From NCBI GenBank assembly GCA_022781985.1, contig JALESH010000030.1, positions 3,474 through 67,473 on the forward strand: 64,000 nucleotides of DNA, read 5' to 3'. The position numbers and the translations under genes are program-made. Below are positions 8,920-47,939 of this stretch, one piece after another. This DNA is from Lachnospiraceae bacterium (GTDB lineage: Bacteria; Bacillota; Clostridia; Lachnospirales; Lachnospiraceae). Under the pieces are notes generated by a model, which saw only the letters and a list, made by a program, of their open reading frames with translations, made no database searches and had not been told where the DNA came from. Position 1 is the first letter of the stretch; each line of letters opens with the position of its first letter.

Positions 8920-8938
8920 AAGGAGCAGGTATATTAAT

Positions 8939-14654: not shown

Positions 14655-14673
14655 AAGGAGCAGGGAAATAGAG

Positions 14674-19320: not shown

Positions 19321-19333
19321 AAGGAGCAGAATC

Positions 19334-20530: not shown

Positions 20531-20535
20531 AAAAG

Positions 20536-21561
20536 ATGAAGCTGAGCATTATCGTGCCGGTTTATAATATGGCAGCAGATGGGAAATTGGAATATTGCCT
20601 GGACTCTCTGGTGAATCAGACAGTGGAGGACTATGAGATCATCGCTGTGGACGACTGCTCCGCCGATGGATCGCCGGATATCCTGAGAGCCTATGAGAGC
20701 CGGTTTCCGGACAGGTTCCGCGGGATATACTCCCAGGTCAACAGGCATCAGGGCGGAGCAAGAAATGCCGGCATCAGGGCGGCAAAGGGAGACTGGATCG
20801 GCTTTATCGACAGCGATGACTGGATCGCCCCCGATATGTATGAGCGTCTGATCAGAAAAGCGGAGGAAACCGGAGCGGATCTGGTGGGCTGCGACTACTG
20901 TCTTACAGAGGAGCATTCCATGCAGGCGGGACAGGTGGTTCCCAACAATAAAAGGAGCCAGACAGGAGTCCTGGACGATGATAAGAGACGGAGCCTGATC
21001 CTGGACGGGGGCAGCCTGGTGGTAAAGATATTTCGGCGTTCCATGATCCTGGAGAGGGAGCTTTGGTTTCCGGAGAACATCTTCTATGAGGACAACGCGC
21101 TGGGCAATTCCTATCTGATCCTGGCAGAGCATTTTGAATACATCCAGGAGCCGCTGTACTATTATTATCAGCACAGCGCCTCCACAGTCCACACCATTTC
21201 CCCCGGACGCTGTGAGGATCGGATGACAGCAGGGAGGCTGATGCTGGAGGAGGCCAGGCGGCATGGGTATTATGAAAAATATCTTCCCGAGCTGGAATAC
21301 AGCTTTACCCTGCTGTTTTATATCAACACCCTGTTTACCTATATGGCGGGGGTAAAGGGAGCCAGGTATGGGTTTGTCCGAAGGCTGGGGCAGGAGATGA
21401 AGGCAGCCTTTCCCCATTTCCAGAGCAATCCCTATTATGGAGAGAGAACCCATGAGGAAGAGAAGCGGCTGATTCGGATGCAGCAGAGATCCACACTTTT
21501 TTTTATGCTGTATTACCGGCTTCTGTGGGCCTGGAGGAAATGGCGGAAGGCCCATGGGTGA
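20536..21561 (+). CDS. glycosyltransferase family 2
   Basis: LSIIVPVYNMA, IIAVDDCSADGS, GGARNAGI and FIDSDDW motifs. Confidence 0.8.
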   Translation: MKLSIIVPVYNMAADGKLEYCLDSLVNQTVEDYEIIAVDDCSADGSPDILRAYESRFPDRFRGIYSQVNRHQGGARNAGIRAAKGDWIGFIDSDDWIAPDMYERLIRKAEETGADLVGCDYCLTEEHSMQAGQVVPNNKRSQTGVLDDDKRRSLILDGGSLVVKIFRRSMILERELWFPENIFYEDNALGNSYLILAEHFEYIQEPLYYYYQHSASTVHTISPGRCEDRMTAGRLMLEEARRHGYYEKYLPELEYSFTLLFYINTLFTYMAGVKGARYGFVRRLGQEMKAAFPHFQSNPYYGERTHEEEKRLIRMQQRSTLFFMLYYRLLWAWRKWRKAHG

Positions 21562-21580
21562 AGGAAAGGACAGGTCTTTC

Positions 21581-23767
21581 ATGGAGATAGGAAGTATTTA
21601 TGAGATAAGCCCGGATGCGGCGGCAGGGACGGACAGGGAGGCAGCCCTGCCTCCTCTCAGGCTGAAGGAAGTGGAGAAGTATGGAAAAAAATACTGCCGC
21701 TTTACAGGCTCGGGAAGGGAGGCCATCGCCCTGGCGCTGAGGAGCCTGGAGGCAGACAGACCCGGACTGAACAAGTGCTGCCTGCTTCCGGCCTATATGT
21801 GTGACTCGGTTTTTTTCCCTTTCCTGCGGGCAGGCTGGAGGATTCATTTTTATCATCTGGATGAGGAGCTGGCAGCGGATCCGGAAAGCCTGGGAAGCCA
21901 GGTGGAGCATATAAGGCCGGGCCTGCTTTTTATCCATCCCTACTATGGCATGGATACATGGAAGCCGCTGCGGCCTTTGCTGCCCCGATGGCAGGCAGAG
22001 GGAGTCTGTATCATGGAGGATGTGACCCAGTCCTATTATCTGGAGACGGCGGGCAGGGAAGCTGACTATGTGGTAGGAAGCCTGAGAAAATGGTATCCGA
22101 TACCGGATGGGGGCTTTGTGGCTTCCCATCGGCCGCTGCCGGAGGCGCTGTCGGATCATCGGGAGTTTGTGGGGAGCCGGCTGCAGGTGCTGACGGAAAA
22201 GTGGGAATACCTGCATGGGATGGGTGAACCGGAGGAAAAAAGGGCCCGGAAGGAGGACTACCTGGGCAAAAACCGGAGGCTGGAGAAGGAGCTGGACGGT
22301 TATGCCGGCATCAGCGGGCTGTCGGAGGTGTCAGCCCGCCTGCTGGCCGGAACTGAGGAAGGGGAGTGCCGCCGCAGAAGGGAGGAGAACCATAGGTTTC
22401 TCCTTCATAAAATCCTTCATAGCCCCGGCATAAAGGAATCCGGCATCCGTCCCCTCCCTTCCCGTCAGGAGGGGGCAGCCCCCTTGTACCTTGCGGTCTG
22501 TGCAGGAGACAGGGATGGGCTGCAGGCTTATCTACGGGAGAGAAATATCTTTGCCCCTGTGCTCTGGCCCCCGGGAGAGGAGAATGAGGGCTGTCTGAGG
22601 GAAAAGGAGCGGTGGGTCTATGATCATCTGCTGGCCCTGCCCATAGACCAGAGGTATGGGCAGGAGGAGATGGGATATATCGCCGGGACACTGGAGGAGT
22701 ATGGGCAGACTCCGGTCATAGGCATACGGGCAGATGCCAACGGACAGATCGGCGCAGGACATATCATGCGGTGTATTACCATAGCCGGGCAGCTTATCCG
22801 GAGAGGGGCGCGGGTGCTGTTTTTTACAGCGGACACCTATGCCCATCCCATGCTGGAGGAGGCAGGGCTGCCCTATGTGTGCCTGCACAGTACCTGGAAT
22901 CGGATGGAGGAAGAAACGGAGGCGCTGAAAAAGGAGCTGCAGCAGGCAGGCTGCCGCAAACTGCTGGTGGATTCCTACCAGGCCACAGAAAGGTATTTTC
23001 GCAGCCTGGAGGACAGCTGTGCGCTGATCTGTATGGACGACTGCTTCCAGGAAATCTATCCTGTGGATATGGTCATCAACTACAATGCCTACCATACCCG
23101 CTTCCCTTACAGGGAGGCCTATGGGGACAGGGCAAGGCTGCTGCTGGGAACCTCCTATGTGCCTCTGCGTGAAGAGTTCCGTCCTGTTTTGCAGAAGGAA
23201 TCCGGACAGCCCCTGCAGGTGCTGCTCAGCTCCGGGGGAGGGGATGTATACAATGCCCTTTCCGGCATCCTGGGGGAAGCCCTGGGGGATGGAGGGCAGG
23301 GGAAGGATACCTTCAGGGAGGTGATTTTCCATGTGGTGGTGGGGAGGTTTCATGAGCACCGGCAGGAGCTGGAGCGGCTGGCAGACCATTTTCCCAATAT
23401 CAGGCTGCATTATAATGTGACGGAGATGGCAGAGCTGATGAGCCGGTGTCAGGGAGCCGTGTCTGCGGCGGGCACGGTGCTGTTTGAGCTCTGTGCCATG
23501 GAGGTGCCCACGGTATTTTTTGTCAGTGCGGACAACCAGCAGTATGACAGTGAATTTTTTGCCCGGGAAGAGCGGATGCTGTTTGCAGGAGACATCAGGA
23601 CAGACAGGAGGGGCTGTCTGGAAAATATCTGCATCCGGCTGCAGTCCCTGCTGGCAGATGAGGGGATGCGGGAGAAAATGAAAAAAAAGCTGCATGAGGT
23701 CACAGACGGCCGGGGGGCTGACCGGATTGCAGAGGAGATCCTGAGGCTGAAAGGGAGGAAAGCATGA
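21581..23767 (+). CDS. pseG: fusion protein: DegT-like PLP-fold domain (N) + UDP-2,4-diacetamido-2,4,6-trideoxy-beta-L-altropyranose hydrolase PseG (C)
   Basis: The C-terminal half is PseG-like: IGIRADANGQIGAGHIMRCITIA, VINYNAY....Y.......LLLGTSYVPLREEF and LLSSGGGDVYN. The N-terminal roughly 370 aa look like a divergent DegT/fold-type-I enzyme: GSGREAIALAL, LLPAYMCDSV and GSLRKWYPIPDGG, with a Lys in the PLP position. Confidence 0.75.
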   Translation: MEIGSIYEISPDAAAGTDREAALPPLRLKEVEKYGKKYCRFTGSGREAIALALRSLEADRPGLNKCCLLPAYMCDSVFFPFLRAGWRIHFYHLDEELAADPESLGSQVEHIRPGLLFIHPYYGMDTWKPLRPLLPRWQAEGVCIMEDVTQSYYLETAGREADYVVGSLRKWYPIPDGGFVASHRPLPEALSDHREFVGSRLQVLTEKWEYLHGMGEPEEKRARKEDYLGKNRRLEKELDGYAGISGLSEVSARLLAGTEEGECRRRREENHRFLLHKILHSPGIKESGIRPLPSRQEGAAPLYLAVCAGDRDGLQAYLRERNIFAPVLWPPGEENEGCLREKERWVYDHLLALPIDQRYGQEEMGYIAGTLEEYGQTPVIGIRADANGQIGAGHIMRCITIAGQLIRRGARVLFFTADTYAHPMLEEAGLPYVCLHSTWNRMEEETEALKKELQQAGCRKLLVDSYQATERYFRSLEDSCALICMDDCFQEIYPVDMVINYNAYHTRFPYREAYGDRARLLLGTSYVPLREEFRPVLQKESGQPLQVLLSSGGGDVYNALSGILGEALGDGGQGKDTFREVIFHVVVGRFHEHRQELERLADHFPNIRLHYNVTEMAELMSRCQGAVSAAGTVLFELCAMEVPTVFFVSADNQQYDSEFFAREERMLFAGDIRTDRRGCLENICIRLQSLLADEGMREKMKKKLHEVTDGRGADRIAEEILRLKGRKA

Positions 23768-24489
23768 GTGCCATAGCGATTATTACGGCCAGAGGGGGAA
23801 GTAAGCGGATACCGGGAAAGAATAAGAGGGAATTTCTGGGAAAGCCCATTATCTGCTATTCCATAGAAGCAGCCCTGGGATCGGGGCTGTTTGACGAGGT
23901 GATGGTATCCACCGATGATGAGGAGATCGCGGAGATAGCCAGGAGGGCAGGGGCCAGTGTCCCCTTTATGAGGAGTGAGAGCGCCTCGGACGATTTTGCC
24001 ACCACCGACGATGTGCTCCTGGAGGTATTGGAGGAATATGAAAAAAGAGGAAGGACCTTTGCCTACATGGCCTGCCTGTATCCCACGGCCCCCTTTGTGA
24101 CGGCAGAGAAGCTGAGGGAGGCTTTCCGGGTGATGAAGGAAAAGGATGCCTCCGGCATCATGCCGGTGGTACGGTTTTCCTTTCCGCCCCAGAGAGGCAT
24201 GTGGGTGCGGGAGGGCAGGCTGGAATACTGCAGCCCGGAGGATGCGCCGAAGCGATCCCAGGATCTGGAGCCGGTATACCATGACTGCGGACAGTTCTAC
24301 TGTTATCAGGTAGAGCGCTACCGTGCAGGGCGGGGAGAGCTGCCGGGGGGGTATTACCCCATTGTCATGTCTGAGGAAGAGGTACAGGATATTGATAACC
24401 TGTGGGACTGGAGGCTGGCAGAGATCAAGTATGGGATGCTGGAGTCATGCAGCAGGAAGGAGCGCCGCGGAAATGGACAAGAGGATTAA
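23764..24489 (+). CDS. pseF: pseudaminic acid cytidylyltransferase
   Basis: AIITARGGSKRIPGKNKREFLGKPII.YSIEAAL....FDEV.VSTDD.EIA.IA is a CMP-nonulosonate synthetase signature. Its ATGA overlaps the upstream stop. Confidence 0.85.
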   Translation: MSAIAIITARGGSKRIPGKNKREFLGKPIICYSIEAALGSGLFDEVMVSTDDEEIAEIARRAGASVPFMRSESASDDFATTDDVLLEVLEEYEKRGRTFAYMACLYPTAPFVTAEKLREAFRVMKEKDASGIMPVVRFSFPPQRGMWVREGRLEYCSPEDAPKRSQDLEPVYHDCGQFYCYQVERYRAGRGELPGGYYPIVMSEEEVQDIDNLWDWRLAEIKYGMLESCSRKERRGNGQED

Positions 24490-25528
24490 GATAGGAAGCC
24501 GGTATATAGGGGAGGGGGAAAGAACCTTCTTGGTGGCGGAGGTATCGGCCAACCACCTGCAGGATTACGGCCGGGCGGAGGCCATTATCAGAGCGGCGGC
24601 AGAGGCCGGGGCGGATGCCGTGAAGCTGCAGACCTATACCCCGGATACCATTACCATGGATTGTGACAGCGATTACTTCCAGATCACCCAGGGCACCATC
24701 TGGGATGGAACCACCCTGTATCAGCTCTATGAGGAAGCTTATACCCCCTGGGAATGGCAGCCCGGGCTGATGAAGCTGGCCAATGAGCTGGGCATGGAAT
24801 GCTTTTCCTCCCCCTTTGACTTCACCGCAGTGGATTTTATGCAGGAGATGGATATGCCGGCCTATAAGGTGGCTTCCTTTGAGATCACCGATATCCCGCT
24901 GATACGCAGGATCGCCCGGATCGGCAAGCCGGTGATCCTGGCCACCGGAATCGCCTATCTGGAGGATATAGAGAGAGCGGTCCGGGTATGCAGGGAGGAG
25001 GGGAATGACCAGATCATCCTGCTGAAATGCACCTCGGCCTATCCCTCCCCCCTGGAGGATATGAATCTGAGGGTGATCCCCAATATGGCCCGGGTGTTTG
25101 ACTGCCTCACCGGCCTCTCCGACCACAGCATGGGCACTGCAGCCGCAGTGGCAGGGGTGGCCCTGGGGGCCAGGATGGTAGAGAAGCATCTGACCTTGGC
25201 AAGGGCAGACGGAGGGCCGGATGCCGCCTTTTCCATGGAGCCTGCAGAGTTCAGGCAGATGGCAGAGGATATCCGGAGGGTGGAAAAGGCACTGGGAAGG
25301 GTAACCTATGAGCTGACAGAGAAGCAGAAAAGGAGTCGAGAGGACGGCCGTTCCCTCTTTGTGGTACAGGATGTTAAGGCAGGCCAGGCCTTCACGGAAG
25401 AGAACCTCCGCTCTATCCGCCCTGCCTTCGGCCTGCATACGATGTACTATGAGGAGGTATTGGGTAAAACCGCAGCTGAGGATATCTCCCGGGGGACGCC
25501 TCTGGCCTGGAGGCATATCCGCCAGTAA
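24473..25528 (+). CDS. pseI: pseudaminic acid synthase
   Basis: The start at 24473 (MDKRIKIGSRYIGEGERTFLVAEVSANH...AGADAVKLQTYTPDT.T) overlaps the pseF 3' end by 17 nt. A C-terminal SAF/antifreeze-like domain is present. The track's 24323 start is an over-extension. Confidence 0.9.
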   Translation: MDKRIKIGSRYIGEGERTFLVAEVSANHLQDYGRAEAIIRAAAEAGADAVKLQTYTPDTITMDCDSDYFQITQGTIWDGTTLYQLYEEAYTPWEWQPGLMKLANELGMECFSSPFDFTAVDFMQEMDMPAYKVASFEITDIPLIRRIARIGKPVILATGIAYLEDIERAVRVCREEGNDQIILLKCTSAYPSPLEDMNLRVIPNMARVFDCLTGLSDHSMGTAAAVAGVALGARMVEKHLTLARADGGPDAAFSMEPAEFRQMAEDIRRVEKALGRVTYELTEKQKRSREDGRSLFVVQDVKAGQAFTEENLRSIRPAFGLHTMYYEEVLGKTAAEDISRGTPLAWRHIRQ

Positions 25529-27849: not shown

Positions 27850-27878
27850 AGCGTGTTGGAAGAAAGCAAGGTGTGGAA

Positions 27879-31616: not shown

Positions 31617-32075
31617 ATGATAAAACAGATCAGAGATATGTATTTCCGGTTTGAGGAAACCATAAATTATCTCTTTTTTGGAGGACTGGCCTTTTTTGTA
31701 AACATGGGTGCCTATAAGCTGGCTGCGTGGGTACTGGGGGCTGACAATGAAAAGGTGGCGCTGGTTCTGGCTGCCACCATGTTTGCCTGGGTGGCGGCGG
31801 TTCTCTTTGCCTACTGGACAAACCGTACCTTTGTATTTAAAAGCAGGGTAAAGGACAGGCAGGGCATATGGAAGGAATTTACCGCCTTTGTAGGTGCCAG
31901 GGTAGTCACCGGGCTGCTGGAGCTGCTGCTCATGTATGTGCTGGTGGATCTGGTGGATGTGGATGATATGATATCCAAATTTATATGCAATGTAGTGGTC
32001 ATAGCTTCCAACTATGTCTTCAGTAAGCTATGGGTGTTTAAAAAATTAGATTTTCAGAAAAAAGAGATAAGGTAG
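31617..32075 (+). CDS. GtrA-family small membrane protein (polyprenyl-phosphate-sugar flippase candidate)
   Basis: 152 aa with four TM helices. INYLFFGGLAFFVN...Y and F.FKS..... resemble the GtrA-like family. Strong GGAGG RBS. Confidence 0.8.
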   Translation: MIKQIRDMYFRFEETINYLFFGGLAFFVNMGAYKLAAWVLGADNEKVALVLAATMFAWVAAVLFAYWTNRTFVFKSRVKDRQGIWKEFTAFVGARVVTGLLELLLMYVLVDLVDVDDMISKFICNVVVIASNYVFSKLWVFKKLDFQKKEIR

Positions 32076-32104: not shown

Positions 32105-33238
32105 GTGATCATGATGGAAAAGGCCGGGAGACAGGCGAACTACGAGCTGTTAAGGATCATAGCCATGTGGATGGTCATCACCCTCCACTATCTGAACCAC
32201 ACAGGGATGCTGCCGGCTGCGGGAGAGGATATGGTCCTCAGCAGGGCAGCGGCGCTTTTGATCGAGTCCTTCTGTATCATTGCGGTGAACCTGTATGTGA
32301 TGATCAGCGGCTATTTTCTTTCCCTTTCGGATTTCAGTCTCACCAGGCTTCTGCGCCTGCTTTGCCAGGTCTGGTTCTATTCCCTGCTGCTGCTGTTGGT
32401 CATGGGGGGGCTGGGAGCAGACATCGGATGGCAGGAGGAGGGGATATACAGCCTGCTGCCCTTCCTTTTTCCCATCCGGGCAGAGCACTACTGGTTCGCC
32501 ACCTCCTATGTGATCCTGTATCTGCTGACGCCCATCCTCAACACGGCAGTGCGCCATATGGGCAGGCGCTCCTTTCAGGTCACCCTGGCGGGCCTGCTTC
32601 TGTTCTTTTCAGTAAGCAAAAGCGTGGTGCCGCTGCAGTTCGTCACGGACAGCTTCGGCTATGATTTTGGCTGGTTCATCTGTGTCTACCTGACAGGGGC
32701 CTATTTCAGGCGCTGCCGGGCCGGGTGGGAAAAGGATACGGCCTTAAGCCCCTGGCTGGTCTACATTGCCTGCTCCCTCCTGACCTTCGGGACAGCGCTG
32801 TGGGCCTTTTATTTCAGCGGGACAGCAGGGGGGGCTGCCTATCTCACCGCCCTGCCCTTCCACTACAACTTCATCCTCTGTCTGGCCGCAGCCGCAGCCC
32901 TGTTCTGCGCCTTTGGCCGCATCAGGATACAGGAGGGGCGGGCCTCCCGGCTGATCTGCCGTCTCTCCTCCCTCACCTTCGGTGTATACCTCTTTCACGA
33001 GCACATCCTCCTCCGCAGCCGCTGGATCGGATATATAGAGGCCTGCATCGGCAGGGCAGCAGACCTTCCGGTGCCCCTGTTCCTTCTCCACTGGCTGTTC
33101 TCCGTCCTACTGATCTACGCCGCAGGAAGCCTGGTGGATGCACTGCGGCTGTATATTTTCCGTCTGGCCGGAAGCTATACAGCCGGAACCCCTGCGGCAG
33201 TCCACCTGAAAAGGCTGGAGGAAGAACTGAAATCATAA
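32105..33238 (+). CDS. acyltransferase family 3 membrane protein (glycan O-acetyltransferase candidate)
   Basis: The N-terminal NYELLRIIAMWMVITLHY (catalytic His region) and about 10 TM helices fit acyltransferase-3. ATG at 32111 is an alternative start. Confidence 0.8.
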   Translation: MIMMEKAGRQANYELLRIIAMWMVITLHYLNHTGMLPAAGEDMVLSRAAALLIESFCIIAVNLYVMISGYFLSLSDFSLTRLLRLLCQVWFYSLLLLLVMGGLGADIGWQEEGIYSLLPFLFPIRAEHYWFATSYVILYLLTPILNTAVRHMGRRSFQVTLAGLLLFFSVSKSVVPLQFVTDSFGYDFGWFICVYLTGAYFRRCRAGWEKDTALSPWLVYIACSLLTFGTALWAFYFSGTAGGAAYLTALPFHYNFILCLAAAAALFCAFGRIRIQEGRASRLICRLSSLTFGVYLFHEHILLRSRWIGYIEACIGRAADLPVPLFLLHWLFSVLLIYAAGSLVDALRLYIFRLAGSYTAGTPAAVHLKRLEEELKS

Positions 33239-33263: not shown

Positions 33264-34973
33264 ATGCAGCCACTCATGAAAACAGCCGAAAAGTGGATAT
33301 TTCCCCTCCTGCTCCTGCTCTATCCCCTTCTGCTGCTGAATCAGGGAATCGATATCACAGACACCACCTACTCCCTGGGCTATTACCGCTTCATGGAGGA
33401 GATGGACATCACCTGGGTGCTGGCTACCTGGCTGGCCAATCTCACCGGAGCGATGCTGATGAGGCTGCCTATGGGGGATACTCTGCTGGGCATGAATTTC
33501 TATACCGGCCTGATCGTATCGGCTATCTCCCTCCTGTGCTACTATGGCCTGTCCCGGTGGATGCCCCGGTGGATCCTGTTCTTGGGAGAGATCATCGCCC
33601 TGAGCCTGTGCTGGTGTCCTACCACCATCCTGTATAACTATCTGACCTATCTGCTTTTTGCCCTGGGCAGCCTCCTGCTCTGCCGGGCTGTCTGTGAGGG
33701 GAAGGACGGTTATTTTCCGGCGGCAGGGGTCTGCCTGGGAGTGAATGTGCTGGTACGCTTCTCCAATCTGGCAGAAGCGGGGCTCATCGCTGTGGTGTGG
33801 TATGCGGGATGGCTGAATCGGGAGAAAATGGCCGCCACAGTCAGAAAAACAGGGCTGTGCCTGGCCGGATATCTGGCGGGAATGGGTAGTATTTTACTGG
33901 CAATCGGAGTAAAATATGGAGCAGGAGCCTTTATGGGGATGGTAAAGAGCCTGTTTGGAATGACCAGGGAGGCCTCTGACTATACCCTGGCGGGGATGCT
34001 GCTGGCTACTGCGGATGCCTATTGGGCGGGCCTGAAATGGATGGCCTTTATGCTGCCCTGCATCGGTGCGGGAGCAGTGATGTTTCTGGCGGCAAAGGGA
34101 AGGCTGGAACGGGGAAAGAGGATTCTGTACTGTCTGGGCATCCTGATATTGCTGCGTTTTTATTGGGGAAGGGGGATGTTTTCCTTCCGGTATTATAACG
34201 AGGGCAGCGTCTTCCAGTGGATGATGCTCTTCCTCATTCTTTCCATCCTCTGCTGTATGGCGGAAATCGGCGGCCTGCTGGATGGGGATGCGCAGCAGAA
34301 GGCGCTGGCAGCCCTGGTGCTGGCTGTTATCCTTCTCACGCCCCTGGGCAGCAACAACTATACCTATCAGAATATGAACAATCTGTTTATCCCGGCTCCC
34401 TATACCCTCTGGAGCTGCTTCCGCATCTGGCAGAAAACCAGGGGAAGGAGCATCCATTTTCCCTGGCAGGCATTGATGGCCCTGATTCTGCTGATGACGC
34501 TGGTGCAGGGCATTGGCTTTGGCTGCAGCTATGTATTCCGGGATGGGATCTATGGGGAGGCACGGGATGCCCGGGTGGAAAACAGCCCGGTTTTGAAGGG
34601 GATGTATACCAACAGGCAGAATGCGGAGAGCCTGTCGGAGCTGATTTCCTTCTGCAGGGAAGAGGGGATCGGGGAGGAGCCGGTGCTGCTGTGGGGAAAT
34701 GCCCCCGGCCTCAGCTATATACTGGATGTACCCTCCGCCATCTTTACCACCTGGCCCGAGATACCCAGCAACACCGGGGAGGCGCTGGAGAGAGCGCTGG
34801 CAGAGCTGGACTGGGAGCCTGCAGTGATTCTCCACAACGATACGGGCAGGCCCTTTGAGGAAGGGGAGAAGTCAGGGCTGATCCTGGAGTTTATCCGGAC
34901 CCGTGGCTACACCTGTGTCTTTGAAAATGCAAACTATAAGGTATATCGGGCTGCATTCCAGCAGGGCCTGTGA
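33264..34973 (+). CDS. polytopic membrane protein, GT-C-like glycosyltransferase candidate
   Basis: 569 aa with more than 10 TM helices and a roughly 150-aa C-terminal soluble domain. The acidic motif D-I-T-D (33351..33362) sits right after the first TM helix, as in GT-C enzymes. No family recognised by eye. Confidence 0.5.
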   Translation: MQPLMKTAEKWIFPLLLLLYPLLLLNQGIDITDTTYSLGYYRFMEEMDITWVLATWLANLTGAMLMRLPMGDTLLGMNFYTGLIVSAISLLCYYGLSRWMPRWILFLGEIIALSLCWCPTTILYNYLTYLLFALGSLLLCRAVCEGKDGYFPAAGVCLGVNVLVRFSNLAEAGLIAVVWYAGWLNREKMAATVRKTGLCLAGYLAGMGSILLAIGVKYGAGAFMGMVKSLFGMTREASDYTLAGMLLATADAYWAGLKWMAFMLPCIGAGAVMFLAAKGRLERGKRILYCLGILILLRFYWGRGMFSFRYYNEGSVFQWMMLFLILSILCCMAEIGGLLDGDAQQKALAALVLAVILLTPLGSNNYTYQNMNNLFIPAPYTLWSCFRIWQKTRGRSIHFPWQALMALILLMTLVQGIGFGCSYVFRDGIYGEARDARVENSPVLKGMYTNRQNAESLSELISFCREEGIGEEPVLLWGNAPGLSYILDVPSAIFTTWPEIPSNTGEALERALAELDWEPAVILHNDTGRPFEEGEKSGLILEFIRTRGYTCVFENANYKVYRAAFQQGL

Positions 34974-35001: not shown

Positions 35002-36141
35002 ATGATCAATTTTAATGTACCTCCCTTCACGGGAAAAGAACTGGAATATATGCGGCAGGCAGTGGAAAACCAGAAGATCTGCGGAGACGGTGAGTTTACC
35101 GGAAGGTGCAGCCGTTGGATCGAGGAGAAGACGGGAACCCGCAAATGCCTGCTGACCACCTCCTGTACCCATGCGCTGGAGATGGCCGCGCTGCTGGCGG
35201 ATATTCAGCCGGGGGATGAGGTGATCATGCCCTCCTATACCTTCGTCTCCACGGCCAATGCCTTTGTGCTCAGGGGGGCGAAGGTGGTGTTTGTGGATAT
35301 CCGCCCGGATACCATGAATATCGACGAGGAGCTGATCGAGGCTGCGGTGACGGAAAAAACCAGGGCCATTGCGGTAGTCCACTATGCCGGAGTGAGCTGT
35401 GAGATGGACAGGATCATGGAGATTGCAAAACGCCATGGGCTGGCGGTGATCGAGGATGCTGCCCAGGGGATCATGGCCTCCTATAAGGGAAGGGCCTTGG
35501 GAACCATAGGCGACTTCGGCTGCTTCAGCTTCCATGAGACCAAGAACTACAGCATGGGTGAGGGCGGGGCGCTCCTGCTCCGGGATGAGAAGCATATTGA
35601 GGCTGCAGAGATAGTCAGGGAAAAGGGGACAGACAGAAGCAGGTATTTCCGGGGGCAGGTGGATAAATACCGCTGGGTGGACTTCGGCTCCTCCTATTTG
35701 CCCAGTGACATGAACGCAGCCTATCTCTATGCCCAGCTGGAGCTGGCAGAGGAGATCAACCAGGTCCGCCTGAGTCGGTGGAACCGCTACTATGAGAGGC
35801 TGAAGGTGCTGGAGGAGAGGGGAGCGGCAGAGCTGCCGGTCATCCCCCTGGGCTGTACTCATAACGGGCATATGTTTTATCTGAAGGCAAAGGATGTGGA
35901 GGAGCGGACCGCATTGATTCAATTCCTCAAAGAAAGAGGGATCCTGGCGGTTTTCCATTACATCCCCCTGCATTCGGCCCCGGCAGGTCTCAGGTTCGGG
36001 CGTTTTCACGGAGAGGACAGACACACCACCAAGGAAAGCGAAAGGCTGCTGAGGCTTCCCATGTACTACAGCCTGACAGAAGAAGAAGTGGATCATATTG
36101 CCGGCAGGGTAAGGGAATTCTATGGCTATGAGAGGACATAA
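35002..36141 (+). CDS. wecE: dTDP-4-amino-4,6-dideoxygalactose transaminase-like (WecE/RffA-type)
   Basis: Long near-identical runs to E. coli WecE as I recall it: MPSYTFVSTANAFVLRGAKVVFVD.RPDTMNIDE, YKGRALGTIG..GCFSFHETKNY, REKGT.RS..FRGQVDKY.W and FHYIPLH..PAG..FG.FHGEDR.TTKESERLLRLP. The MINFNVPP start at 35002 matches the WecE N-terminus. The ATG at 34990 lies only 1 nt after the SD. Confidence 0.88.
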   Translation: MINFNVPPFTGKELEYMRQAVENQKICGDGEFTGRCSRWIEEKTGTRKCLLTTSCTHALEMAALLADIQPGDEVIMPSYTFVSTANAFVLRGAKVVFVDIRPDTMNIDEELIEAAVTEKTRAIAVVHYAGVSCEMDRIMEIAKRHGLAVIEDAAQGIMASYKGRALGTIGDFGCFSFHETKNYSMGEGGALLLRDEKHIEAAEIVREKGTDRSRYFRGQVDKYRWVDFGSSYLPSDMNAAYLYAQLELAEEINQVRLSRWNRYYERLKVLEERGAAELPVIPLGCTHNGHMFYLKAKDVEERTALIQFLKERGILAVFHYIPLHSAPAGLRFGRFHGEDRHTTKESERLLRLPMYYSLTEEEVDHIAGRVREFYGYERT

Positions 36142-38041
36142 GCTTTTCATTCGTTTGAAACAAAAGGAAAACAGCATACTGGCAGCCCTGCTGGTGCTCC
36201 TCCTCTGTGCTATCATCGGCATCAGGTATGACTATTACTATGATCTGAATGACGATGTGGTCATGAAGGATATCCTGTCGGGGGTCTATACCGGCAGCCC
36301 GGAGGGACGGAATATTCAGATGCTCTATCCCCTGGGTGGGGTCATAGCCCTGGCTTACCGCCTCCTTCCCGGGATCCCGGTATATGGGATCTTCCTGTGC
36401 CTGTGCCAGTTCGGCTGCATCTGGCTGGTGGTGCGCAGGAGCCTGGATCGGGGAAGGTCAGCCCTGTCCAGGGTGCTGCTGCTGGGAGGGGAGGTTATCT
36501 TCATCCTGGCGCTGCTGACAGGGCATCTGGTTTTCGTCCAGTACACCTTTACCAGCGCCATGCTGGCGGCGGCAGCCGCCTTTTTGTTCATCACGTCGGG
36601 GCAGGATGGTTCGGAGACAGGCAAGGCCGCTTTTATCAGGAAGAGCCTGCCCTGCATCCTGACAGCCCTGCTGTCCTATCTCTTTCGGACGGAGCTGATG
36701 CTGCTGCTGCTGCCCCTGCTCTGTGTGGCCGGCGTGTACAGGTGGTCCCTGGAGGAAAGGGTATTTACCAGGGAGAATTTTATAAAATATCTCTCAGTGA
36801 TGGGTGCTGTACTGGCCGGCATGGCGGTTCTGTGGGGCCTGAACAGGGCGGCCTACAGCAGCGGGGAATGGAAGGAGTTTCTCCGTTTCTTTGACAGCCG
36901 CACAGAGGTCTATGATTTTCAGGGCATCCCTCCCTATGAAGGAAATGAGGGGCTGTATGAGAGCCTGGGTATGACAGAGGGGGAACAGTATATGCTGCTG
37001 GATCAGTATAATTTCGGCCTAGAGGAAGGGCTGGATGCAGCCATGCTGGATGAGATCTCGGCATATCAGGCAGGAATCAGGCAAAAGGACAGCTCCTTTT
37101 TATCCCTGTTTGCAGAAAAGCTCAGGCTTTCTCTCTACCGCACCTTACACAGGAGCAGGGATGATTCCCCCTGGAACCTGGCAGTGGCGCTGGGCTATCT
37201 GTGGGTGACGGCAGCCATGGCGCTGGGCGTGCTGCAGAGGCGCGCAGAGGGAGAGACAGGACAGGGAAGGGGCTGCAGAATAAGGAGGGTCATGGGCGGT
37301 CTGGCCGGGGAGCTGTGGAAGCCCCTTTTCCTCTATGCTGTGAGGACGGCTCTGTGGCTGTTTATCCTCATTCGGGGAAGGGATCCGGTGAGGATCACCC
37401 ACTCCCTGTATCTGATGGAGCTCTGCATCCTGGCAGCCATGCTGCAGACAGAGTGGGGACGGCTCAGGACAGGAGCAGGGAGCGCCAAAGAAAAATCCGG
37501 GACAGCCTGCCCCGCCGTTTTCCGGGCAGTCTGCAGGGCAGCTTGTCCTGCATTCCTGACGGTGCTGATGGCGGCAGCCCTGCCGGAGCGTATGGCGGAG
37601 ACTGACAGAGAGTATACGGCCCGGGAGGCCGCCTGTCTGGTGGACAGGGGGATGAAGGAGTACAGCAGGGCCCATGAGGGTGATTTTTATTTCATGGACG
37701 TGTACTCCTCGGTGTCCTATCCGGCAGAGCCCTATGCCTCCACTCCTTATTCGGAGAAGCTGTTTGCAGAGACAGACAACAGGTTGGGCAACTATGACCT
37801 CATGGGCGGGTGGCTGGTGAAAAGCCCCCTGTATAAAAGGAAGCTGGAGCGGTTTGGAATCCCTTCCATGGAGGAGGGGCTTTTGTATATGGAGAATGTA
37901 TACATGATGGCAGAGCTGGAGAAGGGAACGGACTATGTCAGGGATTATTTTGCGGACCGGGGGATAGAGGTCATTCTGATACAGAAGGACAGGATCTGTG
38001 ATCTCATTGGGGTATATAAGATAGAACCGGCAGGGCAGTGA
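36122..38041 (+). CDS. polytopic membrane protein, GT-C-like glycosyltransferase candidate
   Basis: 639 aa. It overlaps the wecE-like 3' end by 20 nt. An acidic cluster DYYYDLNDD (36230..36256) follows the first TM helix. It has many TM helices and a C-terminal soluble domain. Confidence 0.5.
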   Translation: MAMRGHKLFIRLKQKENSILAALLVLLLCAIIGIRYDYYYDLNDDVVMKDILSGVYTGSPEGRNIQMLYPLGGVIALAYRLLPGIPVYGIFLCLCQFGCIWLVVRRSLDRGRSALSRVLLLGGEVIFILALLTGHLVFVQYTFTSAMLAAAAAFLFITSGQDGSETGKAAFIRKSLPCILTALLSYLFRTELMLLLLPLLCVAGVYRWSLEERVFTRENFIKYLSVMGAVLAGMAVLWGLNRAAYSSGEWKEFLRFFDSRTEVYDFQGIPPYEGNEGLYESLGMTEGEQYMLLDQYNFGLEEGLDAAMLDEISAYQAGIRQKDSSFLSLFAEKLRLSLYRTLHRSRDDSPWNLAVALGYLWVTAAMALGVLQRRAEGETGQGRGCRIRRVMGGLAGELWKPLFLYAVRTALWLFILIRGRDPVRITHSLYLMELCILAAMLQTEWGRLRTGAGSAKEKSGTACPAVFRAVCRAACPAFLTVLMAAALPERMAETDREYTAREAACLVDRGMKEYSRAHEGDFYFMDVYSSVSYPAEPYASTPYSEKLFAETDNRLGNYDLMGGWLVKSPLYKRKLERFGIPSMEEGLLYMENVYMMAELEKGTDYVRDYFADRGIEVILIQKDRICDLIGVYKIEPAGQ

Positions 38042-38078
38042 CCGGAAGCCCGGAAACAGGCCGGAGGGAGGCGGATAT

Positions 38079-39623
38079 ATGCAGCAGAATCAGCATGCAG
38101 ACCGGAAGGAGCAGCTACAGCAGGACGGGCCTGTGATGATAAGGGGAGAAAGGATCATCCTGCGCCCCATGGAGGAGCAGGATACAGAGAATATCATAAA
38201 ATGGAGGAACAGCCCCAGGGTACGGAGCTGCTTTATCTACCGGGAGGATTTCACCCCGGAGGGCCACCGCAGGTGGACAGATACCATGATCCGGAAGGGA
38301 CTGGCCCTGCAGTTTATCCTGTGTGAAAAGGAGGGAGGCCGGCCGGTGGGCAGTGTCTACCTCCGGGACATAGATCGGGAGAAAAAGGAGGCGGAATACG
38401 GCATCTTCATCGGGGAGGAGGAGGCAGTCGGAAGGGGCTGGGGCTCAGAAGCGGCCCGGCTGGCGGTGGACTATGCCTTTGAGCAGATGGGGATGGAGAG
38501 AGTGTTCCTGCGGGTCTTCACCGACAATATACCGGCGGTCAAAAGCTATGAAAGGGCAGGCTTTGTCCGGGACGGTATCTTAAAGGACGTGGAGTGCTCC
38601 GATGGGGAGAAAAAGGATATGCTCCTGATGTCGGTGAGCCGGGAGAAGGAGAAGCTGGTCAGCTTTGTCATTCCCTGCTACCGTTCGGAGCAGACCCTGT
38701 CCGGAGTGGTGGCGGAGATAAAGACTGCCATGGGACTTCTCCAAAAGGAGGGGAAAAAGTATGACTATGAGATCATCCTGGTCAACGACTGTTCCCCTGA
38801 TGATACCTTTTTTGTGATCCGGGGCCTCTGCAGGGAGGATGAAAGAATCAAAGGCATCAATCTGGCCAAAAATTTCGGGCAGCATGCGGCACTGATGGCA
38901 GGCTTCCAATTCGTAAAAGGAGACATCACCGTCTGTCTGGACGATGATGGACAGACTCCGGCAGATGAGGTGGGAAAGCTGCTGGCTGCCATTGAGGAGG
39001 GCCTGGATGTGGTGTATGCAAAATACCAGCACAAAAGGCACTCCCTCTTCCGCAACTTCGGCACCTATATGAATGAGGAAATGGCCAGAGTCATGCTGGG
39101 AAAGCCAAAGGAGCTCTACGTTTCCAGTTATTTTGCAGCCCGGCGCTTTGTGATAGAGGATATGAAAAGGTATACCAATGCTTATCCCTATGTGATCGGC
39201 CTGGTGCTGCGAGCAGCAGGAAGGGTGGGCAACGTGTCTGTGGCTCACAGAGAGCGGGAGGTGGGGGCATCGGGCTATACCTTCGGCAAGCTCCTGGGGC
39301 TGTGGTTTAACGGGTTCACGGCTTTCAGTGTAAAGCCCCTGCGGATCGCCACTGCCATAGGCTGTACCTGCTCCGCGGCAGGGTTTCTCTACGGTATCTA
39401 TACGGTGATCAAAAAGTGGGTCAACCCCCATGTGCCGCTGGGCTTCAGCTCCCTGATGGCAGCTACCGTATTTATGGGCGGCATGACCATGATGCTGCTG
39501 GGACTGGTGGGGGAGTATGTAGGCAGGATGTATATTTCCATGAATAATTCCCCTCAATATGTAATCCGGGAGATGATCAATGAAGAGATCAATGAAGACA
39601 TCCATAAAAAACAGATTTCATAA
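38079..39623 (+). CDS. fusion protein: GNAT N-acetyltransferase (PseH/WecD/RimL-like subfamily) + GtrB/ArnC-like polyprenyl-phosphate GT2
   Basis: The N-terminal roughly 185 aa are GNAT-like: RPMEEQDTENIIKWRNSPRVR, AEYGIFIGEEEAVGRGWG and ERAGF. The remainder is GT2-like: SFVIPCYRSE, ILVNDCSPDDT, AKNFGQHAA and CLDDDGQTP. Two C-terminal TM helices end in GLVGEYVGRMY...NNSPQY. Confidence 0.8.
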   Translation: MQQNQHADRKEQLQQDGPVMIRGERIILRPMEEQDTENIIKWRNSPRVRSCFIYREDFTPEGHRRWTDTMIRKGLALQFILCEKEGGRPVGSVYLRDIDREKKEAEYGIFIGEEEAVGRGWGSEAARLAVDYAFEQMGMERVFLRVFTDNIPAVKSYERAGFVRDGILKDVECSDGEKKDMLLMSVSREKEKLVSFVIPCYRSEQTLSGVVAEIKTAMGLLQKEGKKYDYEIILVNDCSPDDTFFVIRGLCREDERIKGINLAKNFGQHAALMAGFQFVKGDITVCLDDDGQTPADEVGKLLAAIEEGLDVVYAKYQHKRHSLFRNFGTYMNEEMARVMLGKPKELYVSSYFAARRFVIEDMKRYTNAYPYVIGLVLRAAGRVGNVSVAHREREVGASGYTFGKLLGLWFNGFTAFSVKPLRIATAIGCTCSAAGFLYGIYTVIKKWVNPHVPLGFSSLMAATVFMGGMTMMLLGLVGEYVGRMYISMNNSPQYVIREMINEEINEDIHKKQIS

Positions 39624-41487
39624 ACTCACATCCCTTTTCCCTGCCGCCTGTGCTGCCGGCCCGGCCCTGCCCGGCATCTCTCTGGCTGCCGTGCTCTGCC
39701 TGCCCAGGCTGCTGAATCTGCAGGGAAGGGAGCTGGCGGTGAGCAACAGCTGGTTCTCTGTCCTGGTATGGGCAGCGCTCTGGCTCCTGCTGAGAAGGGC
39801 AGAGGCTGTCTGCCGGCAGGATGGGAAGGAAGGAAGAGGCCGGGCGGCGGCAGGGCTTCTGGCCTTTTTTTTCAGCCTGTGCCTGGCCTTCGGCAGGGAG
39901 CTGGACTCTGTGGGAAATGTGGACTTTACCGACGGGCTCATGTGGCTGTCCATCCTGGTGTGGACAGTGGTTTTCACCCCCCTGATCCTGGCAGGGTGGA
40001 TAGGGCTGGAAAAATCCGGGGAAAGCGGACAGCCCCCAGGGAGCAGGCCGGTGGGACGGCTGGCAGGAGCTGTAGCATGGTGGGAGGGGCTGTCGGCAGG
40101 CAAGCAGGCAGTGCTCACTGCAGCCTTTTTTCTGCTGAGCTGGCTGCCTGTCTTCCTGGCTGTTTATCCCGGCTTTTTTGTCTATGATGCCCAGGACGAG
40201 CTGCTGCAGGCGCAGACCAGGCAGTTTACCACCCATCATCCCCTGCCCCATGTGGTTCTGCTGGGGGGCATCATACTGGCGGTGCATAAGCTGACAGGCT
40301 CTTATAATGCAGGGATCGCAGCCTATACCCTGCTCCAGATGGCAGTACTGGCGGGCCTGTTTTCCTGTGTGATTTCTTATATGAAAAAGAACGGCGCGGC
40401 ACTCTGGCTGCGGGCTGCGGGCATTCTCTATTTTGCCCTTTTTCCGGTTATCGTCATGTTTTCCCTCTGCTCCGCCAAGGATGGGATTTTCAGCGGAGCG
40501 CTGCTGCTGCTTTTGCTGGCGGTTCTGGATATGGCAAAGGACAGGGAAGCCTTTTTCAGCAGCCGGAAGGGGCCGCTGATTTTTTTCAGCTCCGCCCTGG
40601 TGATGATGAGCTTCCGTCACAATGGGATGTATGCCCTGCTGGTGATGGCACCCATCCTGCTGGCAGCCATGAAGGGCTGCAGGAAAAGGCTTGGTCTCCT
40701 GCTGGCATGGGTCTTTGCCGCCTGGCTTTTGTGCAGTAAAGGGCTTGGGGCAGCCCTGTCAGCGGAGGATCCGGGCAGCCAGGAGCTGCTCACCGTGCCC
40801 ATCCAGCAGCTGGCCCGTGTCTACCGGTATGAGAAGGAGAGCCTGACGGAGGAACAGTGCAGGACTCTGTACGAGATCCTGCCGGAGGAGGCGCTTGCCA
40901 GATATAACCCAAAGCTTTCGGACGGGGTAAAGGTGGACTTTCAGAATGAGGCCTTCCGGAGCCGTCCGGCAAGGTACGCAAGGCTCTGGCTGGAGCTGGC
41001 GGTTTCCCACCCCTTCACCTTCGTGAACGCCTGGCTGATGACCTCCTACGGCTTCTGGTACCCGGATACGGTGATAGATGTGTACCGGGGAAACAGTGTA
41101 TTCACCTACACCTATGAGGACAGCTCCTTCTTCGGCTACGAGGTGGAGCAGCCCGGTGTGAGGGAGAGCAGGCTCCCCTGGCTGGAGGAATGCTACCGCC
41201 GGATGTCCCTGGAGATCACTCAGCAGAGGATTCCCGTGGTCTCCATGCTGTTCTCCCCGGGCTTCCTCTTCTGGCTCTATGCCTTTACCGCAGGCTATGT
41301 CTTCTATCGGAGAAAATACAGCCTGATGCTTCCCTTTGCCCTGCTGTTGCTGGTATGGCTGACTGTGCTCCTGGGCCCTACCTGCCTGCCCAGATACGTG
41401 CTCATCCTCTGGTTTGCCCTCCCGGTGCTCCCGGGCCTGCTGCTGTCCGCTCCCTCCCGGGGCACGGCATCCGGGCCCGGCTTGTAA
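39580..41487 (+). CDS. polytopic membrane protein, GT-C-like glycosyltransferase candidate
   Basis: 635 aa. It overlaps the upstream gene by 44 nt. A YDAQDE motif (40186..40200) follows a TM helix. There are more than 12 hydrophobic helices and an external loop of about 120 aa. Confidence 0.5.
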   Translation: MKRSMKTSIKNRFHKLTSLFPAACAAGPALPGISLAAVLCLPRLLNLQGRELAVSNSWFSVLVWAALWLLLRRAEAVCRQDGKEGRGRAAAGLLAFFFSLCLAFGRELDSVGNVDFTDGLMWLSILVWTVVFTPLILAGWIGLEKSGESGQPPGSRPVGRLAGAVAWWEGLSAGKQAVLTAAFFLLSWLPVFLAVYPGFFVYDAQDELLQAQTRQFTTHHPLPHVVLLGGIILAVHKLTGSYNAGIAAYTLLQMAVLAGLFSCVISYMKKNGAALWLRAAGILYFALFPVIVMFSLCSAKDGIFSGALLLLLLAVLDMAKDREAFFSSRKGPLIFFSSALVMMSFRHNGMYALLVMAPILLAAMKGCRKRLGLLLAWVFAAWLLCSKGLGAALSAEDPGSQELLTVPIQQLARVYRYEKESLTEEQCRTLYEILPEEALARYNPKLSDGVKVDFQNEAFRSRPARYARLWLELAVSHPFTFVNAWLMTSYGFWYPDTVIDVYRGNSVFTYTYEDSSFFGYEVEQPGVRESRLPWLEECYRRMSLEITQQRIPVVSMLFSPGFLFWLYAFTAGYVFYRRKYSLMLPFALLLLVWLTVLLGPTCLPRYVLILWFALPVLPGLLLSAPSRGTASGPGL

Positions 41488-46073: not shown

Positions 46074-46096
46074 AAAATGAAGGGAGGATATACAAA

Positions 46097-47227: not shown

Positions 47228-47243
47228 GCAGGGCCGGGAGGGT

Positions 47244-47894
47244 ATGAGCATGATATACGGAAAATATATAAAGAGGCTGCTGGATTTTATCCTGTCCCTT
47301 CTGGGTATTATCGTCCTCAGCCCGTTGCTTCTGATCCTGGCTGTGCTGGTACGCTGCAGGCTGGGAAGTCCTATTCTGTTCCGGCAGGAGAGGCCGGGCA
47401 AGGATGAAAAGATCTTTACCCTCTGCAAATTCCGGACCATGACGGATCAGAAGGATGACCGGGGCAGGCTCCTGCCGGACAGCCAGAGGCTCACCGGATT
47501 CGGCAGGCTGCTCAGGGCCTCCAGCCTGGATGAGCTGCCGGAGCTATTCAATATCCTCAGAGGGGACATGAGCATCATCGGGCCCAGGCCCCTGCTGGTC
47601 TCCTACCTGCCTTATTATACCCGGGAGGAGAGGAAGCGCCATACAGTGCGTCCCGGACTTACCGGACTGGCACAGGTCAGCGGCAGGAATTTTATAGACT
47701 GGGACAGGCGGCTGGAAAAGGATGTAGAGTATGTGGACCGGCTCTCCTTCAGGATGGATCTGAAGGTGCTGTGGCTCACGGTGAAAACGGTGCTGGGCCG
47801 CAGCAGTGAGGTGGCAGAGGATACCCAGGCAGTGGAAGGAAATTTTGCGCAGATCAGACAGAAGCGGCTGGATGAGACGGGAAGGCTGAAATAG
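47244..47894 (+). CDS. small monotopic phosphoglycosyl transferase (PglC/EpsL/WecP-core type, initiating enzyme)
   Basis: KR..DFILSLLG.IVLSP.....L.VR...GSPILF.Q.RPG.....F...KFRTM...D......RLT.FG..LR..SLDELPEL.NIL.GDMS.IGPRP. The ATG at 47244 follows GGGAGGG. Confidence 0.85.
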   Translation: MSMIYGKYIKRLLDFILSLLGIIVLSPLLLILAVLVRCRLGSPILFRQERPGKDEKIFTLCKFRTMTDQKDDRGRLLPDSQRLTGFGRLLRASSLDELPELFNILRGDMSIIGPRPLLVSYLPYYTREERKRHTVRPGLTGLAQVSGRNFIDWDRRLEKDVEYVDRLSFRMDLKVLWLTVKTVLGRSSEVAEDTQAVEGNFAQIRQKRLDETGRLK

Positions 47895-47939
47895 GAGAAG
47901 GCCGGGATTTGCGCGGGCAGAAGGAGCGTGGTGATAGCG

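Follow-up and report, generated by a model that had tools for sequence, protein, structure and literature searches.

A predicted Arn-like pathway for a 4-amino-6-deoxyhexose in a Lachnospiraceae glycan locus encoding a PseH-like acetyltransferase fused to an ArnC-like glycosyltransferase

We analysed a 64-kb stretch of DNA from a Lachnospiraceae bacterium (the window), in which all genes lie on the plus strand, tightly packed into one large glycan locus. The genes considered here, between positions 33264 and 41487, encode a WecE-type sugar aminotransferase, a single polypeptide combining an acetyltransferase of the GNAT family with a polyprenyl-phosphate glycosyltransferase of family GT2, and three polytopic membrane proteins of 569, 639 and 635 amino acids (aa), the last belonging to family DUF6020. 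They are arranged as follows:

33264..34973, + strand: 569-aa polytopic protein of no family, possible further glycosyltransferase of the GT-C class (synteny)
35002..36141, + strand: WecE-type dTDP-4-keto-6-deoxy-D-glucose 4-aminotransferase, DegT family (NCBIfam WecE models, identity to 4PIW)
36122..38041, + strand: 639-aa polytopic protein, candidate glycosyltransferase of GT-C fold with a C-terminal beta-rich soluble domain (AlphaFold 2 and Foldseek)
38079..39623, + strand: GNAT::GT2 fusion, 514 aa, one open reading frame (Pfam and NCBIfam domains)
38151..38633, + strand: GNAT domain of the fusion, residues 25-185, PseH-like N-acetyltransferase with a nucleotide-linked 4-amino-4,6-dideoxyhexose as predicted substrate (Acetyltransf_3)
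38649..39584, + strand: ArnC/GtrB-type polyprenyl-phosphate glycosyltransferase domain of the fusion, residues 191-502, with C-terminal membrane helices (Glycos_transf_2, ArnC structures)
39580..41487, + strand: DUF6020 polytopic protein, 635 aa, candidate GT-C enzyme (PF19484)

The evidence is computational: Pfam and NCBIfam profiles, sequence matches to the PDB, AlphaFold 2 models compared by Foldseek, synteny, neighbour-joining trees of the GT2 and GNAT sequences, and a simple hydropathy scan for transmembrane (TM) segments, whose counts refer to strongly hydrophobic segments. E-values of the family assignments within the module are far beyond chance. Eighty-five related loci (labelled L below) were compared. 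Eighty of them came from a metagenome search with an alignment; the single fusion protein used as query against genome contigs recovered two true relatives. Gene content was assessed by tblastn of every window protein onto the related loci and, for class-B loci, also by their own open reading frame (ORF) calls; none of the top 120 database proteins was closer than about 72% to the class-B loci. Aminotransferase counts are restricted to the approximately 71 loci with enough upstream sequence, and synteny counts for membrane genes to 25 long loci of the WecE class.

The 35002-36141 product is assigned by its sequence to WecE at the equivalog level. It scores 640.6 bits with model NF008687 (cut-off 375), residues 1-374 aligning with positions 1-374 of the 375 in the model, and 635.9 bits with TIGR02379 (cut-off 434.85). 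It shares 69% identity with the Escherichia coli WecE of PDB entry 4PIW across 360 aa, and the lysine of the HETK motif, presumably the one that binds pyridoxal phosphate, occupies position 181 in both proteins. The predicted product is dTDP-4-amino-4,6-dideoxy-D-galactose (dTDP-Fuc4N). Such an identity is high for a protein shared by a Lachnospiraceae and an enterobacterium, which suggests that wecE has been transferred horizontally between phyla. WecE/RffA orthologues, also with dTDP-Fuc4N as predicted product, are known from flagellar glycosylation islands of Clostridium butyricum, with no lipid-carrier context (PMC13317340). The stop codon of the gene (36141) overlaps the ATG of the 639-aa ORF (36122) by 20 nt; both the WecE likeness and this overlap had been recognised in a preliminary description of the window.

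That description had also read the next ORF as one polypeptide joining a GNAT domain to a GtrB/ArnC-type GT2 with C-terminal TM helices, and profile and structure matches bear this out. The GNAT domain matches Pfam Acetyltransf_3 with 92.4 bits (gathering score 25.4), and G118, G120 and G122 of its glycine-rich acetyl-CoA loop are invariant in 12 homologues. The GT2 domain matches Glycos_transf_2 with 93.9 bits and contains an invariant DXD motif (D288-D289-D290). Among NCBIfam models ArnC fits it best, at 172.2 bits against an equivalog cut-off of 529 (NF007986), and PgfS comes second at 147 bits. The closest solved structures are those of ArnC (9HWJ, 9BHC and 8VXH, about 150 bits), followed by GtrB (about 119) and DPMS (47); residues 192-503 align with ArnC 8-317 and, at 119 bits, with GtrB 28-329. 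By these scores the domain is ArnC-like and no ArnC orthologue. One hydrophobic helix at its C-terminus (residues 456-474) passes the hydropathy scan, and the full-length alignment to the two-helix ArnC points to a second. The stop codon of the fusion (39623) overlaps the ATG of the 635-aa ORF (39580) by 44 nt, as initially reported. The public gene call for the fusion (P0061) starts at an internal methionine around residue 184, which still falls inside the GNAT domain as assigned here, and yields a 331-aa product without the GNAT domain. We take this short call to be an artefact, since full-length homologues are conserved; annotation built on it would miss the fusion.

A database search for the GNAT::GT2 architecture, which the preliminary description had advised, returned more than 120 clusters with both domains in one chain (54-81% identity), the named ones all from Lachnospiraceae. 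Among the 85 related loci, GNAT and GT2 are adjacent in 81. They form separate genes in 71 loci according to an automated check (L013 is probably miscalled), and fused forms are confined to the clade of the window and to a separate clade made up of L003 and L036. In unfused relatives the GNAT gene ends with a stop codon and the GT2 begins with M(K/E)K(V/I)SFVIPCYRS. In the clade of the window this junction retains neither the stop codon nor the initial methionine of the GT2 (…KKDMLLMSVSREKEKLVSFVIPCYRS); the L003/L036 clade has a different, longer linker. The junction sequences thus indicate that the two proteins were fused at least twice independently. That neighbouring genes fused repeatedly argues well for two activities that act consecutively on the same molecule. 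L003 also encodes a stand-alone 155-aa GNAT, which was rejected as a good PseH because it scores 31.7 bits only.

A sugar 4-aminotransferase (WecE, PseC or a third DegT type) is found no more than one gene upstream of the pair in about 64 of the roughly 71 assessable loci. WecE is the commonest partner (38 loci, directly adjacent in six). The third DegT type, for which PseC is the best model at 249 bits, well under the cut-off, is directly adjacent in 17 loci, and a true PseC orthologue is adjacent or one gene off in nine. Both the GT2 and the GNAT tree group the pairs linked to PseC and those linked to the third DegT type in a single clade; the lineage of the pair therefore tracks the type of aminotransferase. 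Separately, the L024 locus (3168-16523) exemplifies a second locus type (also L020, L023, L066-L076 and L080) in which a DegT gene, whose product has PseC as its best model at a sub-threshold 249 bits, directly precedes separate GNAT and GT2 genes. Also encoded there are three more GT2s, a DAO-type FAD oxidoreductase, a GtrII-family protein, a DUF6020 paralogue and a number of polytopic proteins without family.

The most informative locus is L041, an unrelated metagenome contig on which a compact operon without pse genes (7286-15204) is inserted behind the housekeeping genes hrcA-grpE-dnaJ-prmA. It encodes, in order, a 4-TM protein, WecE (641 bits), a GNAT (89.9 bits on the PseH model), an ArnC-like GT2 (172.5 bits on the ArnC model), two EamA/SMR-like 4-TM proteins, a 490-aa polytopic protein of no family, RmlA (473 bits, cut-off 361) and RmlB (513 bits, cut-off 365). 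The two EamA/SMR-like proteins are reminiscent of ArnE and ArnF. From these assignments the operon is a self-contained predicted pathway leading from glucose-1-phosphate to a lipid-linked 4-acetamido-6-deoxyhexose. This string of genes supports a logic in which the sugar is aminated, N-acetylated and then loaded on undecaprenyl phosphate (Und-P). The presence of the GNAT with WecE, RmlA and RmlB, and with no pse genes, also implies that this GNAT family is not confined to a PseH role.

The 639-aa protein matches no Pfam or NCBIfam family and has at least seven strongly hydrophobic segments; its family comprises about 970 proteins and is represented in 23 of the 25 long WecE-class loci. AlphaFold 2 produced a confident model from a 34-sequence alignment (pLDDT 88.2, pTM 0.90), whose first Foldseek match in the PDB is ArnT (5EZM; E 2.6e-4, probability 1.0), followed by Pmt4, Pmt1/2, AglB and ALG3. 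These five top matches are all GT-C enzymes, with modest TM-scores (0.38-0.43), and the model thus indicates a GT-C fold. The catalytic carboxylates of GT-C enzymes are located in the loop that follows TM1, and in the 639-aa protein D37, N43, D44, D45 and D50, directly after TM1, are invariant. The DUF6020 protein (PF19484, E 1.3e-40; about 1,500 matches in the family) has 13 hydrophobic segments and an invariant YPGFFVYDAQ-E motif, and occurs in 20 of the 25 loci; its model is somewhat less confident (pLDDT 80.5, pTM 0.82). The position of its gene, right after that of the lipid-sugar synthase, is analogous to the gtrB-then-gtrC gene order.

The 569-aa protein has nine hydrophobic segments, with conserved G28 and D33 after TM1, and no Pfam, NCBIfam or PDB-profile match. 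Its gene lies directly upstream of wecE in 23 of the 25 loci and also in the class that lacks the 639-aa family, which makes it the membrane protein most tightly linked to WecE. Profile-profile comparison among the three polytopic families revealed no similarity (probability at most 1.6%), and the 569-aa and DUF6020 profiles found no match among PDB sequences. The GT2 is always followed by a polytopic protein; in loci lacking the 639-aa and DUF6020 families it is some other, non-homologous one, and in class A' loci and in L041 the polytopic protein at this place goes undetected by hidden Markov models of the three families. A variable polytopic protein after a conserved GT2 agrees with the pattern of gtrB and gtrC, of which the first is conserved and the second, coming after it, is variable.

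Two further genes upstream complete the conserved surroundings:

31617..32075, + strand: GtrA-family small membrane protein, candidate flippase for the lipid-linked sugar (GtrA_DPMS_TM, 76.3 bits)
32105..33238, + strand: Acyl_transf_3 membrane acyltransferase, conserved neighbour (PF01757, 109 bits)

The GtrA gene is present in 12 and the acyltransferase gene in 24 of the 25 long loci. A PglK-like ABC exporter is also encoded upstream in the window.

Altogether, these data make it likely that the module belongs to some pathway in which a sugar is aminated, acetylated and loaded on Und-P. We consider it probable on balance that the four genes from wecE to the DUF6020 gene, together with GtrA, specify an Arn-like, three-component (Gtr-type) side pathway that brings 4-acetamido-4,6-dideoxy-D-galactose (Fuc4NAc) via undecaprenyl monophosphate to an acceptor at the cell surface. 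RmlA and RmlB, encoded elsewhere, would supply dTDP-4-keto-6-deoxy-D-glucose, which WecE would convert to dTDP-Fuc4N. The PseH-like GNAT domain of the fusion would N-acetylate the 4-amino group, and the ArnC-like GT2 domain would then move the sugar onto Und-P at the inner face of the membrane. GtrA would flip the lipid-linked sugar, and the DUF6020 protein, the ArnT-like 639-aa protein or both would transfer it to the acceptor, for which a wall glycopolymer, lipoteichoic acid or a surface protein are candidates. Of this scheme, the family assignments, the domain fusion, the GT-C fold of the 639-aa protein and the conserved synteny are shown; the substrates, the sequence of steps, the channelling, the choice of GT-C partner and the acceptor are inferred. 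The preliminary description had proposed amination, N-acetylation, loading and transfer outside, with direct channelling between the fused domains: this logic is backed by the conserved pair, its aminotransferase neighbours, L041 and the ArnT-like fold of the 639-aa protein, and channelling may be a further consequence of the fusion. ArnC accepts only an N-acylated 4-amino sugar donor (10.1101/2025.01.29.634835), which provides a rationale for tying an acetyltransferase to the transferase; the residues of ArnC that recognise the formamido group were left undefined in that structure paper.

Several points weigh against a pathway so specified. From its scores on the WecD models (21.9 bits with NF008212, cut-off 219; 19.5 with TIGR02382, cut-off 195), the GNAT domain is not WecD-like. 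Its top NCBIfam model is PseH (TIGR03585), at 82.0 bits and under the cut-off of 93.1. PseH is indeed the best model for every GNAT of the family (82-97.5 bits); orthologues and relatives of the domain score between 82.7 and 97.5 bits, and the Kineothrix orthologue passes at 97.5. In databases the fusion is named 'GNAT family N-acetyltransferase' or 'PseH', the latter being the NCBI name of the protein from Kineothrix sp. MB12-C1, assembly GCA_030863805.1. The window itself encodes five of the six Pse enzymes:

18319..25528, + strand: pseudaminic acid genes for PseB, PseC, a PseG fusion, PseF and PseI (NCBIfam equivalogs)

These score above their cut-offs (PseB 536/408, PseC 461/423.5, PseG 181/153.6, PseI 486/340, PseF 274/206), and the 64-kb window contains no PseH-like GNAT other than the fusion domain, which is thus the sole PseH candidate. 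In 27 or 28 of the related loci (about one third) the pair follows PseC or another non-WecE DegT protein. RmlA and RmlB, which the preliminary description had listed as missing, are indeed not among the scanned ORFs of the window; the ORFs at 1183 and 2155, checked as candidates, are Fcl-like and ManC-like.

L-arabinose is homomorphous to D-galactose, so that Fuc4NAc is the 5-methyl analogue of 4-formamido-4-deoxy-L-arabinose (Ara4FN), and L-altrose is the C5 epimer of D-galactose. 4-Amino-4-deoxy-L-arabinose (L-Ara4N), Fuc4N and the PseC product therefore share their C1-C4 configuration, which explains how one GNAT-GT2 pair can partner WecE or PseC, depending on the genome. By the same token, the GNAT domain of the window probably also covers the PseH step, for which there is no other candidate. 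A broader reading, which we regard as tentative and rather doubtful, takes GNAT plus GT2 as a portable cassette that acetylates and loads 4-amino nucleotide sugars of arabino/galacto configuration. Put behind WecE, PseC or the third DegT type, it would place Fuc4NAc, 2,4-diacetamido-2,4,6-trideoxy-L-altrose or a further sugar on Und-P. In the window a single GNAT would stand at a metabolic fork, with CMP-pseudaminic acid synthesis on one side and the lipid-carrier branch on the other; of its two products, one would be channelled by the fusion, and the 639-aa and DUF6020 proteins would be the transferases.

We consider it unlikely that the GNAT domain serves just as PseH in pseudaminic acid synthesis, acting on UDP-4-amino-4,6-dideoxy-beta-L-AltNAc, with the GT2 loading 2,4-diacetamido-2,4,6-trideoxy-L-altrose on Und-P or having no link to WecE. 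Besides the profile scores and the incomplete pse set, this view can draw on the PseB-PseC-GNAT-GT2 order of L067, on the nine loci with PseC near the pair, and on the use by ArnC of UDP-beta-L sugars with a 4-acylamido group. It can also draw on L090 (10001-21602), where a further fused homologue (P0079) sits beside a convergent true PseC orthologue, with no WecE and no other pse gene within 10 kb. However, on this view the conserved module, in which WecE is found more often than any other partner, would contain no N-acetyltransferase for the WecE product, and in L078 a true PseC occurs besides a separate DegT-GNAT-GT2 trio. The PDB sequence matches of the GNAT domain are SpeG- and AAC(6')-like and include no solved PseH. 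The preliminary description had itself allowed that the domain might be the missing PseH: the want of any other PseH-like GNAT in the window keeps that thought alive, and the L041 pair, with WecE, RmlA, RmlB and no pse genes, speaks against it. As a separate observation, the L090 fusion lies amid membrane glycosyltransferases of the GtrII, PMT_2 and STM0557 types.

For the Fuc4NAc pathway, the membrane step is the other point to be weighed, and it is rather improbable that one or both of the polytopic proteins flanking the fusion are polymerases, ligases, flippases or acyltransfer helpers instead of glycosyltransferases, the true transferase being the 569-aa or another protein. The best Foldseek matches of the DUF6020 model are GT-C enzymes (Pmt4, STT3, Pmt1, AglB, AftA, ArnT), as are most of those with higher probability, but E-values are 0.17 or worse (0.17-1.2 for the top three), which makes its GT-C assignment tentative. 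The low TM-scores of the 639-aa model, the lack of profile similarity among the three families and the closer association of the 569-aa protein with WecE, including in loci without the 639-aa family, would also fit such non-transferase roles. Set against these are the five GT-C matches of the 639-aa model headed by ArnT, the invariant acidic residues in its first loop, and the canonical GtrC place of a polytopic protein right after the lipid-sugar synthase. The structure predictions that the preliminary description had called for support a transferase role for the 639-aa protein, as ArnT-like, and lend weak GT-C likeness to the DUF6020 protein. Which synthase would serve which membrane protein is ambiguous, as the hydropathy scan identifies three GtrB-type GT2s with C-terminal helices in the window (at 3922, at 27873 and in the fusion) and the locus has at least three polytopic candidates.

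Finally, it seems very improbable that the GT2 is an ordinary GtrB/CsbB/PgfS-type enzyme with a common donor such as UDP-Glc or UDP-GlcNAc, the GNAT modifying something else and WecE being close through operon crowding. In favour of this view, PgfS is the second-best model for the GT2, the ArnC cut-off is far off, and the locus is rich in other glycan genes, with two more GT2s of GtrB type among them. Against it, the pair stays adjacent across very different contexts and has fused independently, an aminotransferase lies within one gene in most assessable loci, the lineage of the pair tracks the aminotransferase type in both trees, and the minimal L041 operon encodes no other use for the WecE product.

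The rest of the window contains several neighbours of interest. The PseG of the pse cluster is the C-terminal half of a 737-aa protein (21554-23767; 181 bits versus a cut-off of 153.6), the N-terminal 385 residues or so of which show faint DegT/ColD-like similarity (E about 0.3-0.4 against the PDB); the related loci encode PseG homologues of about 350 aa that lack this extension. The N-terminal half was considered as the missing acetyltransferase and rejected, as it has this faint similarity only. The pse cluster is followed by an L-amino-acid-ligase-type ATP-grasp enzyme (25559-26776) and a GT52-like enzyme (26773-27849), which hint at a pseudaminic acid derivative and at its transferase.

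Further on, a GtrB-type GT2 (27873-28868; 215 bits on the PgfS model, two C-terminal helices) immediately precedes a YdjC gene (28869-29777). The preliminary description had enlisted YdjC as the deacetylase of the pathway and concluded that every Arn-like step had a counterpart in the locus. This was overstated: neither YdjC nor the adjoining GT2 has a homologue in the 85 related loci, including the otherwise syntenic Kineothrix locus, and YdjC, although the sole candidate, was rejected as the deacetylase of the module. By analogy with FlmF2/NaxD or LgmA/LgmC, the two genes probably constitute an inserted cassette of their own, a lipid-HexNAc synthase with its deacetylase. The module thus has no conserved deacylase, and the transferred sugar is predicted to stay N-acetylated.

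Downstream of the module lie genes for an 896-aa protein with a faint Wzy_C match, a PglF-like dehydratase, a LegC-family transaminase, a PglC-like phosphoglycosyltransferase, an ATP-grasp protein, a GT4 and a sugar dehydrogenase. A set within this region (44199-48923) is conserved together in nearly all WecE-class loci and consists of the PglF-like 4,6-dehydratase, which is membrane-anchored, the LegC-family transaminase (377 bits, cut-off 420), the small PglC-like protein and the ATP-grasp protein, which is PylC-like. The probable role of these genes is the synthesis and priming of an N-acylated, bacillosamine-like initiating sugar. Amid the glycan genes (10216-13614) lies one for an 1132-aa protein with three SLH domains, an M64 peptidase domain and repeats of the Rib and Listeria-Bacteroides types; the protein may be anchored to the wall at the cell surface and could conceivably be a target of glycosylation.

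Of the known systems, the Arn pathway (PmrHFIJKLM), which puts L-Ara4N on lipid A in E. coli and Salmonella, offers a step-by-step parallel to the proposed Fuc4NAc pathway: both combine a 4-aminotransferase (ArnB or WecE), 4-N-acylation, an ArnC-type GT2, a small-protein flippase and a GT-C enzyme. The GT2 has ArnC as its nearest solved relative, the 639-aa protein has ArnT as its best structural match, L041 has an ArnE/F-like 4-TM pair, and Fuc4N is the 5-methyl homomorph of Ara4N. The differences lie in the donor, here predicted to be a dTDP-6-deoxyhexose and in Arn a UDP-pentose; in the N-acylation, here by a GNAT acetyltransferase and in Arn by the formyltransferase domain of ArnA; and in the partner of the acyltransferase, which is fused here to the ArnC-like enzyme and in Arn to a decarboxylase. 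In addition, the module here includes no conserved ArnD-type deacylase, its GT2 does not reach the ArnC equivalog cut-off, and since the Gram-positive host has no lipid A, the acceptor must differ from that of Arn.

Gtr-type systems (GtrA/GtrB/GtrC, CsbB/GtcA/YfhO, GacI/GacL, PgfS/PgfM) likewise comprise a GtrA-family protein and a GtrB-type GT2 with C-terminal helices, with a variable polytopic GT-C enzyme encoded next to it. The likeness extends to PgfS being the second-best model for the GT2 and to the joint encoding of GtrA, the lipid-sugar synthase and the 639-aa GT-C candidate. Known systems of this type, however, use common donors (UDP-Glc, UDP-GlcNAc, UDP-Gal) and need no dedicated tailoring enzymes, whereas the present module brings its own aminotransferase and acetyltransferase, and the GT-C candidates come from undescribed families, one without a Pfam model and one DUF6020.

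The enterobacterial common antigen (ECA) route to Fuc4NAc (RmlA/RmlB, WecE, WecD, WecF) has an orthologous WecE (69%) and the same predicted dTDP-Fuc4NAc, but there the acetyltransferase is WecD in place of a PseH-like protein, and a cytoplasmic Leloir enzyme, WecF, adds the sugar to the Und-PP-linked repeat unit, where the module here is predicted to load Und-P and to transfer outside. The Francisella FlmF2/NaxD/FlmK and Bordetella LgmA/LgmC/LgmB systems are alike in that a GtrB-type GT2 gene is immediately followed by ydjC in the window; this GT2-YdjC pair differs in having no homologue in the related loci and is probably separate from the WecE-fusion module. PseH itself is the best model for the GNAT and shares its substrate class, nucleotide-linked 4-amino-4,6-dideoxyhexoses; the domain here scores under the cut-off, is fused or adjacent to a lipid-carrier glycosyltransferase, and belongs to a family also found with WecE, RmlA and RmlB. 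What would be new within Arn/Gtr-type three-component glycosylation is thus the predicted sugar, the domain fusion and the uncharacterised GT-C families. Text searches of the literature returned no paper that names DUF6020, describes a GNAT::GT2 fusion or gives a lipid-carrier route for Fuc4NAc.

If the proposed pathway is correct, it would be the first route known to us in which a 4-amino-4,6-dideoxyhexose is carried on undecaprenyl monophosphate. It would carry the Arn logic, best known from Gram-negative polymyxin resistance, over to Gram-positive commensals that are abundant in the gut, offer a first lead to the function of the DUF6020 and 639-aa families, and correct the database names of the fusion. 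The repeated fusion of acetyltransferase and synthase, which parallels the requirement of ArnC for an N-acylated donor, suggests that a gate of a general kind bars free-amine sugars from the carrier. To our knowledge the surface glycans of Lachnospiraceae are almost unstudied, and they bear on host immunity and on susceptibility to phages.

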